A DNA stretch of 40,786 nucleotides, taken from IMG/VR virus record IMGVR_UViG_3300045988_060257; one strand, 5' to 3'. This stretch comes from a virus. This document shows positions 1 to 40,786 of this stretch, in pieces. Positions within the stretch are counted from its first letter, which is position 1. Each line of letters begins with the position of its first letter. The position numbers were made by a program, and so were the translations under genes. Below the pieces are notes generated by a model that did not search any database, was not told the DNA's origin, and was given only the letters and a program-made list of their open reading frames with translations.

Positions 1-56
1 CACTCAGGGCGCGGCATCTGCTACAGGCACTCAGGGCGCGGCATCTGCTACAGGCA
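1..56 (+). repeat. continuation of the 27-bp coding tandem repeat (GGCGCGGCATCTGCTACAGGCNNNNNN) that also ends the window
   Basis: nt 1-34 are identical to nt 40753-40786. Units encode GAASATGTQ. Confidence 0.9.
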
Positions 57-262
57 CGGAAAGCGTTGCTGCTGCGCTCGGCATTAATAGTAAAGCTAAA
101 GGCGCTTTAGGATGCTGGATTGTGATTGCAGAATGGGAAAGCGACGAGAAATTTAACTGGCATCGTAAAGATGTGCAGTGCTTTAAAGTTGACGGTGAAA
201 ACATCAAGTCCGATACCTGGTACAAGCTGAAAAACGGCGAGCTTGTGGAGGTGTCCGAATGA
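2..262 (+). CDS. 3' part of a wrap-around CDS: DUF7666-like repeat protein (5' part at 40358..40786)
   Basis: The frame is open from nt 2 with no start. It encodes ...GAASATGTESVAAALGINSKAKGALGCWIVIAEWESDEKFNWHRKDVQCFKVDGENIKSDTWYKLKNGELVEVSE. TGA 260-262 overlaps the next ATG. Confidence 0.8.
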   Translation, partial: TQGAASATGTQGAASATGTESVAAALGINSKAKGALGCWIVIAEWESDEKFNWHRKDVQCFKVDGENIKSDTWYKLKNGELVEVSE

Positions 263-3640: not shown

Positions 3641-4426
3641 ATGGCAAATGAGGGCTTCATCAAGCTGTACAGAAAAATGCTCGAATGGGGCTGGTATGAT
3701 GACGGCCCCACAAAGGACGTGTTTATTCACCTGCTGCTGATTGCCAGCTATGAGGATAAATTTTATCGTGGTATCCCGCTGGAACGCGGCCAAGTTGTTA
3801 CAACAGTCAAGGAAATGAGCGTAAAGCTTGGCCTGACAACGCAACAAATTCGTACTGCTTTAGGCAAGCTAATTTCAACAAACGAAGTAACAAAGAACGC
3901 AACGTCAAAATTCACCGTTTACACGATAAATAATTATGCCGATTATCAGGCAATCAACAAAGACTCTAACAATCCAGCAACAAACGAGCAACAAACGAGC
4001 AACAAACCCTCTAATACTAAGAAGGTAAGAAATAAAGAAATACCCCCTATACCCCCCACGGGGGTTGACGCGGATTCCCCTTCCTTTGACCGTTTCTGGG
4101 CAGCTTACCCAAAGAAGGTCGGCAAGGCAGATGCCCGTAAAAAATTTGAAAAGCTTGTGCCGGATGAATCCACCCTGTCCGCAATCTTGTCCAGCCTTGA
4201 GTACCTCAAGACCACTGACCAGTGGCAGCGTGAGAATGGCAAGTACATCCCAAACCCGTCTACATGGTTGAATCAAAAGCGCTGGCAGGATGAAGCATCC
4301 CAGCCGCCTACTACTGTCCGCTCTACTGATAACCTGCGGCCTGTGTTTGACCGTGAGTACACGTTTGAAGAACGGATGAATGGAGTTGTCCCGAAAATCG
4401 TGGGATGGGAGGAGGCAAAAGCATGA
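3641..4426 (+). CDS. replisome organizer / DnaD-like replication initiator
   Basis: The N-terminus GFIKLYRKMLEWGWY...HLLLIASY and the FDRFWAAYPKKVGK motif are typical of phage replication proteins. It sits directly upstream of the helicase. Confidence 0.65.
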   Translation: MANEGFIKLYRKMLEWGWYDDGPTKDVFIHLLLIASYEDKFYRGIPLERGQVVTTVKEMSVKLGLTTQQIRTALGKLISTNEVTKNATSKFTVYTINNYADYQAINKDSNNPATNEQQTSNKPSNTKKVRNKEIPPIPPTGVDADSPSFDRFWAAYPKKVGKADARKKFEKLVPDESTLSAILSSLEYLKTTDQWQRENGKYIPNPSTWLNQKRWQDEASQPPTTVRSTDNLRPVFDREYTFEERMNGVVPKIVGWEEAKA

Positions 4427-5682
4427 ATACCATCGTAGCGGAAAAAGCTGTTATCGGCATTATGCTTATGAAACCGGAATTGCAGGACGATGCTTTTTCT
4501 TCCCTGACCTACAAAATGTTTGAGCTGAAAGCGCTCGGGAATATCTTTCTGCTTTGCAAGGATATGGCCGATAAAGGCCATAGGGCTGATACGGTATCGG
4601 TTATTTCCAAATGCGATGACGACACAAAAGTGCTCGCCATGCAGTGCTTTGAAACGGTTCCATCAATATCAGGCTACAACACCTATATCAACTGCGTTAT
4701 GGACGGATGGAGAAAGCGTGAGCTGACAGCGGCATTAACAAAGTTGCTGACCGATGATGGTGATGCCGATGAAATGAGCGCTGCGCTGTTCCACATTGCG
4801 GAACGCCAGCAGTACATCATGGCCCACCAGAAGGAGCGCAGCGCAAAAGATTTTGCCGATGGCATTGATGCGTTCCTTTCCTGGATGAAAAAACCAAGCG
4901 ACAGTATCCAGACCGGGTTTGGCAGCCTGGACACCATGACCGGCGGGCTTGCCCGCAATGGCGTTACCGTAATTGCTGCCCGCCCTGGCAAGGGCAAATC
5001 CACGCTGGCTTTGCAGATGGCCTGCCAGATCTCACAAAACGCGCTGACGCTGTATCAATCCATGGAGATGAGCCGCGAACAGCTTTATACCGCCATCTTC
5101 TCACGCTGGGCACAGATAGACAGCACCCGTATCACAAACCATCGCCTGACGCCGGAGGAAGAATCCGCCATCCGGGAGGCAGCAGATCACCTGAAAAGCA
5201 AGTACCGCCTGATTCTGGATGATTCCAGCATGACCAGCCTTGCCGATGTAGAAACCACGATCAAAGAACGTAAGCCGGAAGTAGTCGTTATTGACCATCT
5301 GGGCCTTGTTGCACCGCCAAACGCTAAAGAAAAGCGTAACGACGAGCTGGCAGCCCTCACACGGGGTTTAAAGCAGCTTGCCATGAAATATCACATCTGC
5401 ATTATCGAGCTCGTACAGGCCGCAAGAGCCGCCGATACGGGCATGATTAAAATGTCGGACATGTTCGGCTCCGCGACTATCGAGCATGATGCAGATATGA
5501 TAATCGCTATCAACCCCGGCATGTACACTAAAAACCGGGAAACGCAAGAAATCAACCCGCCCACCGATGGGGACACCGTGATAGAGGTAGTAAAAAACCG
5601 GCACGGTGCCTGCGGCCAACTGGATTTTGTGTGGGTAAAACCATTTCATCTATTTTGTGAGGTAGAAAAACATGCACGATAA
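4423..5682 (+). CDS. dnaB: replicative DNA helicase DnaB
   Basis: ATGA overlap with the upstream stop. It has a DnaB N-terminal domain and Walker A ARPGKGKST. Confidence 0.85.
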   Translation: MNTIVAEKAVIGIMLMKPELQDDAFSSLTYKMFELKALGNIFLLCKDMADKGHRADTVSVISKCDDDTKVLAMQCFETVPSISGYNTYINCVMDGWRKRELTAALTKLLTDDGDADEMSAALFHIAERQQYIMAHQKERSAKDFADGIDAFLSWMKKPSDSIQTGFGSLDTMTGGLARNGVTVIAARPGKGKSTLALQMACQISQNALTLYQSMEMSREQLYTAIFSRWAQIDSTRITNHRLTPEEESAIREAADHLKSKYRLILDDSSMTSLADVETTIKERKPEVVVIDHLGLVAPPNAKEKRNDELAALTRGLKQLAMKYHICIIELVQAARAADTGMIKMSDMFGSATIEHDADMIIAINPGMYTKNRETQEINPPTDGDTVIEVVKNRHGACGQLDFVWVKPFHLFCEVEKHAR

Positions 5683-35614: not shown

Positions 35615-35637
35615 AGTGTGTACTAAAAGTGTGTACT
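35615..35637 (+). repeat. tandem decamers AGTGTGTACT-AAA-AGTGTGTACT (candidate integrase arm-type site)
   Basis: Direct-repeat partner of 35419-35440. It overlaps the int stop codon region. Confidence 0.6.
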
Positions 35638-36702
35638 TTTTACAATCTCATCAAAGACGTTTTCAAGGTTGTTTGCAATCGCTCTGTCCTGTCCATTGAT
35701 CGCATGAGAATATACCCCGTAGGTGTCCATGTTTCGGCTGTGTCCTACAGTCTGTTTCAGCTGCCCCATCGGCAGGTTTGCCGCAATGCTGACGAATGTG
35801 TGCCGCAGCTCGTACAAGGTGCATTTTGTAATGCCGTTTGCCTCGCAGTATCGCTCCCACCCCCGCCGGACGTTCCGTTCTTCCTCTTGGATGAACACCC
35901 GTTGCTGCATTCCGGTCAACTCTTTCTGTGCTTCCAGCTCGGCCATCGACCGCGCCGACAGCACGACAGCGCGCGGTGCATTTTCGTTTTTCCCTCTTGT
36001 TTCCCTTTTATATATAGTAACTGATCTGTGTATCAATGCTTTCCCGTCCTGGATGTCGCCCCATTCAAGGCCCAGCAGCTCGCCGGGCCTCATCCCGGTA
36101 AACACTGCCAGCCGGTAATAATGGATGCGTTCATCCGGCACCCTGCGCCCTCTGTATAAGGTAGTATCCACGTTTAAAAGCGTCACAATGTCAGACGGTT
36201 GCAGGATGGTCCGATCTTTATAGCGCGCCCCATCTGGTACATGCAGGTCTTCCGGCTCAAATGTGGACCATCCAGACCGACGGCAGAACTTGAAGAAAGC
36301 CCGGAGATCACCTGCTATATTCTTGATTGTTTTCTTGCTCCGGCCAGCAGCAAAAGCGTCATCAAGGATGTTCTGCACTGTCTGCTCTGTGATTGCAGTC
36401 AATCGCTTGGTTCCGATTCTCGGCCCTATCCAGGCATTATACCGGCCCTGCATGGGCTTCCAGTTTCCCTCAGATGATACTTTCATCTGCCGTGTCATAA
36501 ACTCAGCGTAAGCCGCCTCTACGGTATAGGTTCGCGTCTGCAATCCCTTTTCCAGCCAGTCATCCGCCTTCTTGTTTGCTTCCCTCTGGCCGGTTCTTCC
36601 AGGCTTGGCGCTGGTAAAGGTTTTGCGCACGCCGTCTTTCTGCACGTTTATCTGCCAGCGCTGGGCAGATTCAATCCATCTCGCTGTATTTGTTCTTTTC
36701 AT
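35623..36702 (-). CDS. int: tyrosine recombinase (phage integrase)
   Basis: The C-terminal catalytic region contains LRHTFVS...GHSRNMDTYGVYSH, and the N-terminus has a SAM-like domain. It is adjacent to attP. Confidence 0.85.
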   Translation of the reverse strand: MKRTNTARWIESAQRWQINVQKDGVRKTFTSAKPGRTGQREANKKADDWLEKGLQTRTYTVEAAYAEFMTRQMKVSSEGNWKPMQGRYNAWIGPRIGTKRLTAITEQTVQNILDDAFAAGRSKKTIKNIAGDLRAFFKFCRRSGWSTFEPEDLHVPDGARYKDRTILQPSDIVTLLNVDTTLYRGRRVPDERIHYYRLAVFTGMRPGELLGLEWGDIQDGKALIHRSVTIYKRETRGKNENAPRAVVLSARSMAELEAQKELTGMQQRVFIQEEERNVRRGWERYCEANGITKCTLYELRHTFVSIAANLPMGQLKQTVGHSRNMDTYGVYSHAINGQDRAIANNLENVFDEIVKSTHF

Positions 36703-37101: not shown

Positions 37102-38007
37102 TTATTTGGAAAACAATCTATTGCAATCTATTTTGTAAGATTTTAGAACCCTCTGCGCAATCCCATCTTTTCCAAAAATGTAGGATGTTACAATACCTGC
37201 GGCATCTATCGCAGTAACAGTTGGGGTTTCAACAAGCATCCTACCGTATCTTTCTTTTGCCATATCAAAAATTTGTTCTTCAGTAAAGCCAGCGTTTTTT
37301 TGGGCTTTCTTTAGTTCCTGCATAATTCCAGGAGCTATAAAAGGATATTGGCAATTCATATCATAAAAAGGTATTTCAAGTAGCATAGAAAAAGCCGTTT
37401 CAAACTTTTTTTCGTCTACCAAAAACTCATACATAGAATATCGTAAATCACGACATTTTTTGGGAGACGAAATTGCTCCCATGTATAGTTTATTGTATTT
37501 CTCCCATATTAAATCCCGATACGGGATGTCTCTTCGAGCGTTTACGGCGCGGCAAAACTCTGACAAGGAAAAAGTAGCACGAGCGTAAGTTTTTCTGTGC
37601 CAAAAATAAACATATTCGTTATTTTTTATTTCTTCTTTTCCTTTTTCGGTCAATTTCCCGTTTTTGGCAAAACCCATTGATTCCAATTTTTTGATTATAG
37701 GCCAAACGTCATCAACACCATAATCATAATGCCAGAACTTTGCAACAGGCTTTCCACTGGAATATTTCTCTAAATAAGAAAGCATTAAAATTTCTGTTGG
37801 CTTCAGGCCGTTTTTGTCTGCAAGATCATCAGCGGAAAGCGCCAAGAAATACTCATTTGCACGCTCTTCCTGCTCTGCGTGCCGCTTTTCTGCTTGCGCT
37901 TTGCAGTAATTAGTGTATTGCTTTGCAATTTCATCTTTAGTCGGCTCATGTGTAGTTATGGAAACATTTACTTTTGGTTTCGGCTTCAAAAAGTCAAAAA
38001 AGCCCAT
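37102..38007 (-). CDS. AT-rich orphan protein (301 aa) in the lysogeny module
   Basis: Long ORF, co-oriented with the repressor and 75 nt downstream of it. Markedly AT-rich. I recognise no family. Confidence 0.6.
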   Translation of the reverse strand: MGFFDFLKPKPKVNVSITTHEPTKDEIAKQYTNYCKAQAEKRHAEQEERANEYFLALSADDLADKNGLKPTEILMLSYLEKYSSGKPVAKFWHYDYGVDDVWPIIKKLESMGFAKNGKLTEKGKEEIKNNEYVYFWHRKTYARATFSLSEFCRAVNARRDIPYRDLIWEKYNKLYMGAISSPKKCRDLRYSMYEFLVDEKKFETAFSMLLEIPFYDMNCQYPFIAPGIMQELKKAQKNAGFTEEQIFDMAKERYGRMLVETPTVTAIDAAGIVTSYIFGKDGIAQRVLKSYKIDCNRLFSK

Positions 38008-38082: not shown

Positions 38083-38448
38083 TTACGCCTGATCAGATGA
38101 CCGATTTTGTAACTGCTGCGCAAGATTTAATAGAGCGCTTGCAAGCTGAGGGTTCTCTTGGCAAAGAGAAATAATTTTTTGTACATCTTGCGGCAAACCA
38201 GATACTAGCCCATCGCCTTGTGCGGTGGGCTTTTTTTCGTTTTTGAAATCCCCGGTCAGGTCGGCAACGGTGACTCCTAGCAAACTGGCAACATCGGCTA
38301 GCATGTGTTCTGGCAAATCGCGCCCGTTTGCTAGCATTTCAGACAAATAGCCCCGACTTTTTCCGAGCTCTGTACTAATATGCGTGAAGGCAATTCCTTT
38401 TTTCTTTGCTATTTTCTTGGCTTTTTCCACGTATCGCACACAAATCAC
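38083..38448 (-). CDS. CI-like XRE-family repressor
   Basis: GTG start. The HTH is IAFTHISTELGKSRGYLSEMLANGRDLPEHMLADVASLLGVTV. It is divergent from cro. Confidence 0.75.
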   Translation of the reverse strand: MICVRYVEKAKKIAKKKGIAFTHISTELGKSRGYLSEMLANGRDLPEHMLADVASLLGVTVADLTGDFKNEKKPTAQGDGLVSGLPQDVQKIISLCQENPQLASALLNLAQQLQNRSSDQA

Positions 38449-38498: not shown

Positions 38499-38527
38499 TT
38501 TACATCTAGCATAAATGCTAGTATAAT
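38499..38527 (+). promoter_or_regulatory. early rightward promoter TTTACA-17-TATAAT with the operator palindrome CTAGCAT-AA-ATGCTAG (38506-38521) in the spacer
   Basis: Read directly from the sequence. Related GCTAGAAA half-sites lie at 38477-38484, 38487-38494, 38642-38649 (ACTAGAAA) and, inverted, at 38626-38633. Confidence 0.65.
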
Positions 38528-38663: not shown

Positions 38664-38858
38664 GTGAATATTTCGAAAATTGATGCACTGTGCCGAAAAA
38701 ACAATATTTCCCGCACAATCCTTGAGGAACGCGCCGGAATCTCAAACGGCGCACTTGGCAAGTGGGAGAAATCGCCTTACGGCCCCAGCATCACGACGCT
38801 AAAGAAAGTGGCTGATTATTTCGGCGTGCCGGTTGATTATTTGCTAGCCGATAACTAG
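38664..38858 (+). CDS. Cro-like XRE-family HTH protein
   Basis: GTG after AAAGGAG. ISRTILEERAGISNGALGKWEKS...LKKVADYFGVPVDYLL. Confidence 0.75.
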   Translation: MNISKIDALCRKNNISRTILEERAGISNGALGKWEKSPYGPSITTLKKVADYFGVPVDYLLADN

Positions 38859-38876: not shown

Positions 38877-39176
38877 ATGACAAGCCTCGCCTTTACCGCC
38901 TTTATCAAAACCAAAGGCTATACCACCAAAGGTGCGCTGGCTGATGCCTGCGGCATGGACCGCACCGTCTTTTGTGACCGATGCCGGGGCCGCTCTCCCT
39001 GGCTCTGGAAAGAAGCCTGCAAGGTTTGTTCCGTGCTGGACATCTCCCTGGACGACTTTGCCGCCTACTTCCCCGCCGCCGCCGTCCGCCGGTCAACCCC
39101 CGTCAAGCCCAAATCCGACCGCGAACAGCTGGCCGACGCGCTGCAGCTTGCCGCTGACCTCCTCAAAAAAGCGTAG
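38877..39176 (+). CDS. hypothetical early protein (possible HTH)
   Basis: RBS AAAGGAGG. 99-aa ORF. Confidence 0.5.
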   Translation: MTSLAFTAFIKTKGYTTKGALADACGMDRTVFCDRCRGRSPWLWKEACKVCSVLDISLDDFAAYFPAAAVRRSTPVKPKSDREQLADALQLAADLLKKA

Positions 39177-39513
39177 GAATTGCTTGGAAAGGCGGAGCAA
39201 AGGAAAAGCCATGCTTGCCCATGCAATGGCAAGGCTATGCGATGCTATGAAAGGCAATGGCGATGCTCTGAAAGGCAATGGCGATGCGCAGCTTGGAAAG
39301 GAATGGAGTTGCATTGGAAAAGCACCGTTTAGCATTGTTTTGCAATAGCAAAGAGATGTATGGAGCAGCAAAGGCACAGCTACGCAGAGCACAGCAGTGG
39401 CAAAGCAGGGCGTAGAAGGGCACCGCAAAGGCGTAGCATTTCATTGCGACGCGACGGCAAAGCAAAGACTTGAAGAGCAACCGTAATTTATCAATTAGAA
39501 AGGACGACCACAA
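39177..39513 (+). repeat. purine-rich degenerate repeat tract with GC dinucleotides phased every 5-6 nt
   Basis: GC starts at 39365, 368, 374, 379, 384, 389, 394, 400, 405, 410, 420, 425, 431 and 436. GCAAAG occurs 7 times. C occurs almost only after G. Confidence 0.8.
39246..39287 (+). repeat. 2 x 21-bp tandem repeat T(A/C)TGAAAGGCAATGGCGATGC
   Basis: 39246-39266 and 39267-39287 differ at one position. Degenerate copies flank them. Confidence 0.9.
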
Positions 39514-40119
39514 ATGAAAATCCGTATCACTTTAACCGAAGAGGTTTTAGGTTCCAGCCCCAGCAATGAGGAGCTGCTGGCCGCTTACATCGCCAGCAAG
39601 GCCCCCACCGATGACCTGACCGCGCAGGAAGTCGACAACATCAAAGCGCAGGCGGCAGAGGAAAGAACGACCATTTTTCCCAAGACTGCCGACGGAACGC
39701 CGTTCATCTACGATTATCAGATCAAGGGCATGTTTAAGGACAGCTGCAAGGCCCTTGCCACTGCCGGTAAGGCAGGCTATCCGGGCGGCAAGCACTGTGC
39801 CGCGTTGAAAGCCTACAAGAAAGCCATTGACGGCCTGATTTTCGTTTCCCCGCGTGAGATTCCATACAACCTTCACGGCCTAAAGATGGGCTTCTGTGAG
39901 CGCCCCCTGCGCGCACAGACCCCGATGGGTGAGCGCGTCAGCATCGCCAAGAGCGAGAGCGTGCCCGCCGGAGCAACCGCAGAATTTGAAATCGAATGCC
40001 TGGATGAAAAGCTGGAAGATATGGTACGCGAATGTTTGGACTACGGCGCAAAGCGCGGCTTGGGCCAGTGGCGCAACTCCGGCAAGGGCCGCTTTGAATG
40101 GGAGGAAGTAAAAGAATGA
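39514..40119 (+). CDS. hypothetical protein with RAMP/Cas7-like motif order (tentative)
   Basis: RBS GAAAGGA. KIRITLTEEVLGSSPSN ... PFIYDYQIKGMFKDS ... RPLRAQTPMGERVSIAKSESVPAGATAEFEIEC ... GLGQWRNSGKGRFEW (glycine-rich loop). Confidence 0.35.
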   Translation: MKIRITLTEEVLGSSPSNEELLAAYIASKAPTDDLTAQEVDNIKAQAAEERTTIFPKTADGTPFIYDYQIKGMFKDSCKALATAGKAGYPGGKHCAALKAYKKAIDGLIFVSPREIPYNLHGLKMGFCERPLRAQTPMGERVSIAKSESVPAGATAEFEIECLDEKLEDMVRECLDYGAKRGLGQWRNSGKGRFEWEEVKE

Positions 40120-40361
40120 TGGCGACAGCAACAAAAAAACGCCGCCCCTGTGCTGGCACACAGAGACGGCAGAACGAACAGAGCATCGCAAAAAGCTCTA
40201 ACTATATTCTATCACTTACCAGTGCTGCCGTCAAGCTGGCAATCACCGCAGATTTGGTGCTGCTTCTGGCAGCGCTCGGCAGCCTGAACATTCCCGTAAC
40301 CATCCTCGCACTGCTGGCCCTGAATCCGCTGTGCGGCAATCTTTTGGAGGCAACCAGATGA
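40116..40361 (+). CDS. small membrane protein
   Basis: ATGA overlap with the upstream stop. Basic N-terminus, then hydrophobic LAITADLVLLLAALGSLNIPVTILALLAL. Confidence 0.5.
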   Translation: MMATATKKRRPCAGTQRRQNEQSIAKSSNYILSLTSAAVKLAITADLVLLLAALGSLNIPVTILALLALNPLCGNLLEATR

Positions 40362-40786
40362 AAGCATATAAAGGATTTGATAAAGACCTGAAATGCAAAG
40401 ATTTCCAGTATGAAATCGGCAAGACCTACGAGGAACCCACCGCCGAACTGTGCGAGAAAGGCTTTCACGCCTGCGAGTACCCGTTGGATGTATTTGAATA
40501 CTACGCCCCCGGCAACATGAGCCGCTACTGTGAGGTGGATTTGGACGATGTGAGCGATAAAAAAAGCAACAAAGATAGCAAGCGCTGCGGCAAAAAGATT
40601 GCTGTGAAAGCAGAAATCGGCATTGCTGGGCTTGTAAAAGCTGCCGTTAAGTACACGATGGAGAAAGCCATCCCGGAAAACTCCAAACATGCTACAGGCT
40701 GGCGGGGCGCGGCATCTGCTACAGGCTGGCAGGGCGCGGCATCTGCTACAGGCACTCAGGGCGCGGCATCTGCTACAGGCACTCAG
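40358..40786 (+). CDS. 5' part of the wrap-around DUF7666-like repeat protein (continues at 2..262)
   Basis: ATGA overlap with the upstream stop. KAYKGFDKDLKCKDFQYEIGKTYEE...GFHACEYPLDVFEYY. There is no stop before the window end. Confidence 0.8.
   Translation, partial: MKAYKGFDKDLKCKDFQYEIGKTYEEPTAELCEKGFHACEYPLDVFEYYAPGNMSRYCEVDLDDVSDKKSNKDSKRCGKKIAVKAEIGIAGLVKAAVKYTMEKAIPENSKHATGWRGAASATGWQGAASATGTQGAASATGTQ
40691..40786 (+). repeat. 27-bp in-frame tandem repeats (3.5 units here, continuing at nt 1)
   Basis: GCTACAGGC-NNNNNN-GGCGCGGCATCT units encode ATG(WR/WQ/TQ)GAAS. Confidence 0.9.

Follow-up and report, generated by a model that had tools for sequence, protein, structure and literature searches.

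What does a solitary Cas7-like protein do in the early operon of a temperate phage, and what is the periodic, non-coding tract beside its gene? The question is raised by IMG/VR virus record IMGVR_UViG_3300045988_060257, a complete temperate siphovirus-like genome of 40,786 nucleotides (nt), which is referred to below as the window (the whole stretch of DNA that was analyzed). An initial annotation, made from the letters of the window, had noted that the motif order of a protein of 201 amino acids (aa) resembles that of a Cas7/Csm3-type RAMP and had proposed that it might bind the upstream tract as RNA or act as a decoy of host CRISPR complexes. The follow-up favors the former: it appears probable that a CRISPR-independent protein with a Cas7 fold is paired with the adjacent tract and binds the co-transcribed, phased RNA. 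The elements concerned are the following.

39514 to 40119, + strand: stand-alone Cas7-like RAMP protein, 201 aa
39712 to 39738, + strand: alpha1 RAMP motif D67-Y-Q-I70-K-G72-M73-F-K75; G72 and K75 invariant in 84 sequences
39889 to 39963, + strand: predicted beta-hairpin, residues 126-150, equivalent of the Cas7 thumb (modeled strands 126-136 and 139-150)
40057 to 40095, + strand: glycine-rich loop G182-L183-G-Q-W-R-N-S-G-K-G192-R-F194; G182, W186 and G192 invariant
39171 to 39478, + strand: phased non-coding tract, putative cognate RNA; 58 units of 5-6 nt, consensus A-N-N-G(G)-C

The four segments on which the RAMP call had been based were all located in the 201-aa open reading frame (ORF), in the order given (residues 2-18, 63-77, 130-162, and 182-196), and their assignment was essentially right: PFIYDYQIKGMFK is the alpha1 RAMP motif, with G72 and K75 at the start of alpha1, and GLGQWRNSGKGRF is the RAMP glycine-rich loop, situated between alpha2 and the last strand. 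Searches with the single sequence gave weak RAMP signals (PDB chain "Cas7," E=0.29; NCBIfam Csm4, E=0.0017; PADLOC Cas7_IIId, E=8e-5); PHROGs returned nothing, the single-sequence PDB search nothing significant, and Pfam no match at E<=10. A family profile built from an alignment of 84 diverse members matched the type VII Cas7 chain at E=2.4e-6, and its next three matches were Csm4 (7e-4). The AlphaFold2 (AF2) model calculated from the family alignment (predicted local distance difference test, 93.7; predicted template modeling score, 0.87) showed the order of a ferredoxin-like RNA recognition motif (RRM) core, beta1-alpha1-beta2-beta3-alpha2-beta4. When this model was compared with the PDB using Foldseek, 109 matches at E<=1e-3 were obtained, the best 50 of which were all type VII Cas7 or type III Csm3/Cmr4-type backbone subunits (best E=2e-7, probability 1.0, ~210 aligned columns, TM ~0.55, identity 12-18%). 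Because profile search, structure prediction, and fold search agree, the RAMP/Cas7 fold predicted for the 201-aa protein is considered confirmed.

The "central strand pair" of the initial annotation corresponds to the beta-thumb, the extended hairpin that RAMP/Cas7 proteins have between beta2 and beta3. Profile positions 131-200 align to residues 120-191 of the type VII Cas7 chain, the region holding its thumb (residues 114-138; PMC13069675), an equivalence drawn from the profile alignment. Within the predicted hairpin, R130 is invariant and L132, R133, G139, R141, S147, and E148 are near-invariant; in the glycine loop, the pattern G182-x-G-x-x-x-x-x-G-x-G192 is invariant or near-invariant in the 84-member alignment, and the loop aligns with the G-rich loops of type VII Cas7 (E=2.4e-6) and Csm4 in the hidden Markov model alignment. 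Conservation within the protein is highest in the glycine loop and the thumb, which suggests that bases are read. The region matching the catalytic loop of Csm3 (after beta1), in which an aspartate serves to cut target RNA at 6-nt intervals, is helical in the AF2 model (19-29 and 33-44), and type VII Cas7, which is catalytically inactive in its effector, likewise has helices there (PMC13069675); because of this likeness, the phage protein is predicted to be catalytically inactive as well.

With 6,830 clusters at 90% and 1,577 at 50% identity, the family is a large one, and its fold is already known to databases via automated annotation, as two homologs in nr are named after a type III-A Csm structure and a 54%-identical UniProt/BFVD entry is named "Cas system-associated RAMP superfamily protein." Among GenBank phages, megablast of the region found nothing, and a homolog of the protein was present in only four fecal phage records, all of them unannotated. 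Carrier prophage loci, retrieved by searching genome contigs with a profile of a 12-sequence alignment, belong to Gemmiger and Subdoligranulum (the closest, 80-85%), other Oscillospiraceae, Lachnospiraceae, and Coriobacteriia, the latter including Eggerthella, Collinsella, and Olsenella. One Oscillospiraceae contig from a metagenome-assembled genome (JAGCAN010000001.1) carries two gene-plus-tract modules (L157 and L160) ~48 kb apart and with identical statistics, which are probably either two related prophages or a duplication. A divergent member (L172, IMGVR_UViG_3300046804_005041; 34% identity, loop GEGQWR) resides on a 110-kb viral contig, so that the module extends well beyond temperate phages of 40 kb.

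Judged by its defining genomic features, the protein is not a CRISPR-Cas component, though it is structurally a Cas7. The window contains no CRISPR-like array (24-40-nt repeats with spacers), and none of ten other ORFs in it that were searched, neighbors of the gene, gave a cas match. When all ORFs within ~3 kb of the gene were clustered over 82 related loci, no Cas5-, Cas6-, Cas10-, or Cas11-like partner was co-conserved; a Cas5 together with a large or small subunit or a nuclease (Cas10, Cas11, Cas14, Csf1) was found neither among the ten ORFs nor as a co-conserved neighbor in the 82 loci. Co-conservation was restricted to the CI-like and Cro-like genes. The claim that the gene stands alone thus holds for the window and, with respect to a linked Cas5/6/11-like gene, for the 82 loci. 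Homology to known anti-CRISPR proteins was not detected either; Cas7-type proteins were the only homologs found.

The repeat tract that the initial annotation had seen next to the gene is real and highly significant. It occupies a 337-nt non-coding gap between a 99-aa ORF and the Cas7-like gene, starting at the stop codon of the former and ending ~35 nt ahead of the start codon of the latter, and is composed of units such as AAGGC, TATGC, GATGC, AATGGC, and ACAGC on the + strand. Of its 42 GC-to-GC spacings, 26 are 5 or 6 nt, compared with 8.4 ± 2.5 in dinucleotide shuffles (maximum 18 in 5,000), and 37 are 5, 6, or multiples thereof; by this statistic, the tract is the unique highest-scoring 300-nt stretch of the 40.8-kb window. 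Anchored on G, the chain is nearly unbroken over 58 units (44 steps of 5, 11 of 6, and 2 of 10 nt), which corresponds to a mean unit length of ~5.3 nt and a phased-chain score of 56.2 (shuffles, 19.6 ± 5.5, maximum 36; elsewhere in the genome, 11.7 ± 5). Relative to shuffles, the tract lies at z ~7. A Fourier-type spectrum of the GC positions was not significant, since the period drifts between 5 and 6, and was replaced by the spacing counts and the phased-chain score. When units from 20 diverse tracts were pooled, 5-mers read A-N-N-G-C and 6-mers A-A-N-G-G-C, and 10/11-mers consisted of two units, the first of which retained its G (86-91%) without the C. With units of 5-6 nt and no spacers, the tract is unlike a CRISPR array, and it had no match in Rfam. 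It contains ATTGCGAC at 39443-39450 (units ATTGC GACGC), which equals the 8-nt 5' handle of some type I/III CRISPR RNAs (crRNAs), for example of Thermus; given the unit structure, this identity is probably due to chance.

Gene and tract occur together in relatives as well. In nearly all of 80 IMG/VR loci, the locus-wide peak of the GC-spacing statistic was located directly beside the Cas7-like gene, either upstream (in the clade of the window and in several clades of ~52% identity) or directly downstream (in others). In independent prophage loci, 35 of 67 peaks were found within 300 nt of the gene, compared with ~20% expected by chance, and about a dozen further peaks within ~520 nt. Grouping at 70% identity resulted in 40 independent protein clusters, 35 of them with complete flanks; an adjacent tract was present in 27 of these 35 clusters and in 113 of 147 loci, and among 2,425 background windows at a distance of more than 1.5 kb, only 3 scored as high. 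G-X spacing was used for the linkage statistics because a chain score on G only gave false positives. In the close relatives L010, L014, L031, L032, and L082, long G-phased chains arise from a repetitive coding gene at ~+385 to +1300 past the Cas7-like gene, in the DUF7666 neighborhood and with repeats of the SDDA/GNARV type; coding repeats can thus mimic part of the signal. The cleanest tract seen is that of L172, ~+1080 after the gene (42 of 50 GC spacings of 5 or 6).

In every adjacent tract, purines predominate on the strand that is the sense strand of the gene. Downstream tracts begin at a median of 4 nt past the stop codon, upstream tracts end at a median of 30 nt ahead of the start codon, and in one clade as well as in L181 an intrinsic terminator follows directly. 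The sense-strand purine bias, the fit to stop and start codons, and the terminators argue for co-transcription and for a function as RNA. A terminator after the tract is clade-specific and had to be rejected as a general rule (21 of 94 loci compared with a background of 16%). Insertions and deletions in the tracts of close relatives were mostly of 1, 5, 6, or 10 nt: 33 events of 5, 6, or 10 nt were counted, compared with 8 of 2, 3, 4, 7, 8, or 9 nt. These unit-sized events indicate that tracts lengthen or shorten by whole units or turn 5-mers into 6-mers.

The last base of the unit, following the phased G, is lineage-specific. It is C in 114 loci, A in 7 (L046, L085/L086, and the L100 group), and T in 3 (L114, L154, and L161) plus 4 new loci, in several lineages and with the architecture unchanged; loci with poor G-C scores often turned out to have a tract of such another type. 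Each non-C-type protein is nearer to a C-type protein than to the other lineages of its own type. Tract type covaries with residues 70 and 73 of the alpha1 motif, the latter right after the invariant G72, and with residue 183 of the glycine loop. The last is I or L in 111 of 114 C-type proteins, and a residue other than I/L is present in 8 of 10 non-C-type proteins compared with 3 of 114. For the T type, locus searches for relatives with single proteins yielded only 1-3 loci; new loci were fetched by searching for the Y73 variant of the alpha1 motif. The combination of W70, Y/N73, and T/H/Y183 was present in all 7 T-type loci and in none of more than 150 other proteins. Y73 as the single specificity residue for the T type was refuted, as some of the new loci had Y73 and GC tracts.

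In two proteins, P0155 and P0246, a pair of Cas7-like domains is naturally fused in tandem. Each fusion gene is followed by a hairpin and then by a tract in which G-T and G-C units are mixed (L181, 4300-4695; L182, 1429-1665); the alternation of the unit types was not significant (p ~0.4), and a clear intrinsic terminator closes L181. Type III-E Cas7-11 is a known case of fused backbone subunits (PMC8730458), and the tandem arrangement implies that protomers lie side by side. The L181 module is not located at a CI/Cro switch; its neighbors are a 1,448-aa gene on one side and a convergent 597-aa gene on the other.

The features that surround the pair in the window are these.

35623 to 36702, - strand: integrase
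37102 to 38007, - strand: 301-aa ORF between the integrase and the CI-like repressor
38083 to 38448, - strand: CI-like helix-turn-helix (HTH) repressor with a weak Pfam HTH_3 match, divergent from the early operon
38499 to 38527, + strand: promoter-like site of the early rightward operon, TTTACA-17-TATAAT (consensus scan, 11/12 matches)
38664 to 38858, + strand: Cro-like HTH protein, gene 1 of the early operon (Pfam HTH_3, 2.6e-11; HTH_26, 1.3e-8)
38877 to 39176, + strand: 99-aa HTH-like protein (PHROG 4583 "transcriptional repressor," 5.8e-5)
39497 to 39504, + strand: ribosome-binding site AGAAAGGA, read from the sequence, 9 nt 5' of the ATG of the Cas7-like gene
40116 to 40361, + strand: 81-aa hydrophobic ORF whose start overlaps the stop of the Cas7-like gene (ATGA)

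The Cas7-like gene is the third ORF of the rightward operon, downstream of a strong sigma70-like promoter beside the CI/Cro switch, which makes the label "early" given to it initially a reasonable one. On the + strand between promoter and gene, the only terminator-like site is a weak 5-bp stem in the 99-aa ORF, and the two genes upstream of the Cas7-like gene are also preceded by the TAGAAAGGA motif. A leftward gene homologous to the CI-like repressor was present in 60 of 82 related loci. The 99-aa gene is kept mainly in close relatives (40 loci, 38 of them close), and the 81-aa ORF, for which no family match was obtained in Pfam, PHROGs, or PADLOC, was present in 37 close and no divergent loci, which places it outside the conserved module. 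It is followed, in this order, by a DUF7666 gene, Erf, a NinB/Orf-like gene, HNH, SSB, and a DnaB-type helicase.

Several observations in this region stand on their own. A 14-bp GC-rich hairpin at 40140-40171 starts 20 nt past the stop codon of the Cas7-like gene and was scored as a minus-strand terminator (T-run on the - strand, A-run ahead of it on the + strand), with both flanking genes on the + strand; it may mark the 3' end or a processing site of an RNA, or terminate antisense transcription. The 301-aa ORF is placed where morons expressed during lysogeny are typically found and had no match in PHROGs or PADLOC. The helicase (4405-5682, + strand) matched "mad8" of PADLOC weakly (E=1.3e-5), most likely because of generic helicase/ATPase similarity. 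Both ends of the window (1-82 and 40690-40780) carry a 27-nt tandem repeat that codes for a 9-aa repeat (...ATGxQGAAS...), which indicates circular permutation or terminal redundancy of the record; the DUF7666 gene, with its start at 40358, runs across this junction into the start of the window.

How could protein and tract work together? The tract would be co-transcribed with the Cas7-like gene in the early lytic operon, yielding a transcript that carries dozens of phased 5-6-nt units. By analogy to Cas7 along a crRNA, the protein may bind this RNA, rather than DNA, repetitively, with approximately one protomer per unit. Unlike Cas7, it would read bases, namely the phased G and its 3' neighbor, by means of the alpha1 motif (DYQIKGxFK), the thumb hairpin, and the glycine loop (GxGQWRNSGKG), and protein and RNA would form a self-specified ribonucleoprotein filament as soon as lytic growth begins. 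The phased tract and the two-domain fusions are indirect evidence for a helical oligomer like that of class 1 effectors, which forms on single-stranded RNA with a 6-nt (5+1) repeat. Of the conceivable roles of the filament, we would rank first that cooperative coating of the transcript times or autoregulates the early operon, as in TRAP or T4 gp32, and second that of an anti-defense or host-takeover particle. In the window, the gene of the protein has the tract as its 5' leader, so that cooperative coating could autoregulate or time the operon; a 3' tract with terminator rather suggests a free-standing ribonucleoprotein acting in trans, for example against RNA-sensing defenses. An RNA-binding factor for the upstream tract, one of the two roles suggested initially, has strong comparative support in linkage, orientation, co-variation, and indels. 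The fuller version, in which an exapted Cas7 polymerizes on an encoded phased RNA with one protomer per unit, the last base being set by residues 70, 73, and 183, and in which the resulting long filament has a dedicated function early in infection, is put forward tentatively and with somewhat less than even confidence.

A number of results weigh against this interpretation. Curated sequence models (Pfam RAMP and NCBIfam Csm3/Cmr4) do not reach the fold at their thresholds; PADLOC Cas7_IIId matched 11 of the 84 members, which speaks in favor of it. Among the Pfam matches of the 84 members at E<=0.01 there was no RAMP family, the Pfam RAMP model missing all of them, and the only NCBIfam match, Csm4, reached 17.7 bits compared with a cut-off of 55. 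Approximately 8 of the 35 protein clusters lack a clear adjacent tract. The predicted folding of the tract RNA (z = -1.46) is neither unusually stable nor unusually unstructured. The dominant period is 5 nt, compared with 6 nt (5+1) in all class 1 complexes solved (PMC13069675), and a rigid filament would not easily accommodate a mixed 5/6 period. As for base reading, the A-type proteins L085 and L086 keep L183, and L112 (F183) and L137 (W70 and K183) have GC tracts; moreover, the counts of residues and unit types are not corrected for phylogeny, and the T-type proteins may form one clade. Nevertheless, the association between residues and unit type, imperfect as it is for the A type, is what direct reading of bases by the protein would predict.

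Three other explanations have to be weighed against a protein that binds its own phased RNA. The protein could be an anti-CRISPR by subunit mimicry, which inserts into, caps, or titrates host type III, I, or VII complexes or their crRNAs, the tract being bait or irrelevant. Its Cas7 fold would fit, as would the location of its gene next to the immunity switch and near the front of the early operon, where anti-defense genes are typically found, and precedents exist in the phage Racr RNAs, which hijack Cas subunits (PMC10651486), and in the array-less type IV-B complexes proposed to sponge guide RNAs (PMC8175902). However, with an identity of ~12-18% to all Cas7/Csm3 structures solved, the protein is too divergent to enter a host complex by mimicry; the family is highly uniform over hosts as different as Oscillospiraceae, Lachnospiraceae, and Coriobacteriia and apparently does not follow host cas genes; and it has its own sequence-specific tract, whose unit type follows the motif residues of the phage protein, as in a self-contained pair. 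The decoy or inhibitor of host type III/I complexes proposed initially has gained no support, is made less likely by the ~15% identity to solved Cas7, and is considered unlikely. Somewhat less probable still is that the tract acts as DNA, that is, as an origin, an iteron field, or a packaging or recombination site at which the protein binds single- or double-stranded DNA. The module does precede a replication-recombination block (Erf, NinB-like, SSB, DnaB) in the window, a mean unit of ~5.3 nt is half a turn of B-DNA, and sequence alone cannot tell an RNA from the sense strand of DNA. Yet the asymmetry is strict, the tract always being on the sense strand of the gene; it is fitted exactly between stop codon and the next ribosome-binding site, or between stop codon and terminator; it is the CI/Cro region that is co-conserved and not the replication genes; and all characterized subunits of the Cas7 family hold single-stranded RNA (PMC8175902).

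Finally, tract and gene could be mere neighbors, the tract sponging a host RNA-binding factor or serving as a cis-regulatory leader read by the host, with the target of the protein being unrelated. RNA sponges and leaders typically contain short motifs at periodic intervals, as CsrB does for CsrA and the trp leader for TRAP, and some family members have no detectable tract. What speaks against this explanation is that adjacency survives both the move of the tract from the 5' to the 3' side and a protein divergence of ~50%, and that the unit type shifts together with residues in the RNA-contact motifs of the protein; a ligand of a host factor would not be expected to switch from G-C to G-T or G-A within related hosts. 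We regard this explanation as about as improbable as that of a DNA site, and a Cas7-fold protein binding its co-transcribed tract remains the preferred one.

The family is very abundant, mostly in phages of gut Clostridia and Coriobacteriia, and uses the Cas7 fold alone, outside CRISPR, and apparently in the company of a dedicated RNA whose periodic sequence co-evolves with the protein. In the literature searched, no account of a solo phage Cas7 accompanied by a phased tract was found. If the proposal is true, the pair would represent a new kind of phage early-gene ribonucleoprotein and a new viral exaptation of cas genes. It would also be a natural, re-programmable, sequence-periodic RNA coat. 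As a compact pair of protein and RNA whose recognition code can be read, it could serve in the scaffolding or tagging of RNA. Cas7 backbones are viewed as sequence-blind scaffolds inside CRISPR effectors only; the phage protein would be a missing link showing that they can be sequence-specific.

Among known systems, type VII Cas7 and type III Csm3/Cmr4 share with the phage protein the size (~200 aa), the RRM palm, the beta-thumb hairpin, and the glycine-rich loop before the last strand. They differ from it in that here no Cas5, Cas10, Cas11, Cas6, Cas14, or array is present and identity is only ~15%, and in that the RNA candidate of the phage has a sequence-defined 5-6-nt period, whereas theirs is a sequence-independent 6-nt (5+1) grip on the guide. 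A functional analogue may be TRAP of Bacillus, a multi-subunit protein that reads (G/U)AG with 2-3-nt spacers in the trp leader and controls downstream expression. It also follows a 5-6-nt period with variable spacing, but has an unrelated fold and forms a closed 11-mer ring on 11 repeats, whereas the phage tracts comprise 20 to more than 100 units, the protomer is of the open Cas7 type, and the tract may be 3' of the gene. In the array-less type IV-B Csf complex, Csf2 forms a helical filament on non-CRISPR RNA, and heterogeneous RNAs were bound (PMC8175902). This complex and haloarchaeal HRAMP are likewise of the Cas7 family, without array, and on mobile elements (PMC8175902, PMC8730458); they retain Cas5 together with Cas11 or nucleases, and no RNA locus is dedicated to them, whereas in the phage a single protein is accompanied by a phased, presumably co-transcribed tract. 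The Racr RNAs, anti-CRISPRs that consist of solitary repeat units of phages, are likewise non-coding phage RNAs that engage Cas7-type proteins (PMC10651486). They mimic host CRISPR repeats and use host Cas proteins, whereas the phage tract resembles no CRISPR repeat and brings its own protein.

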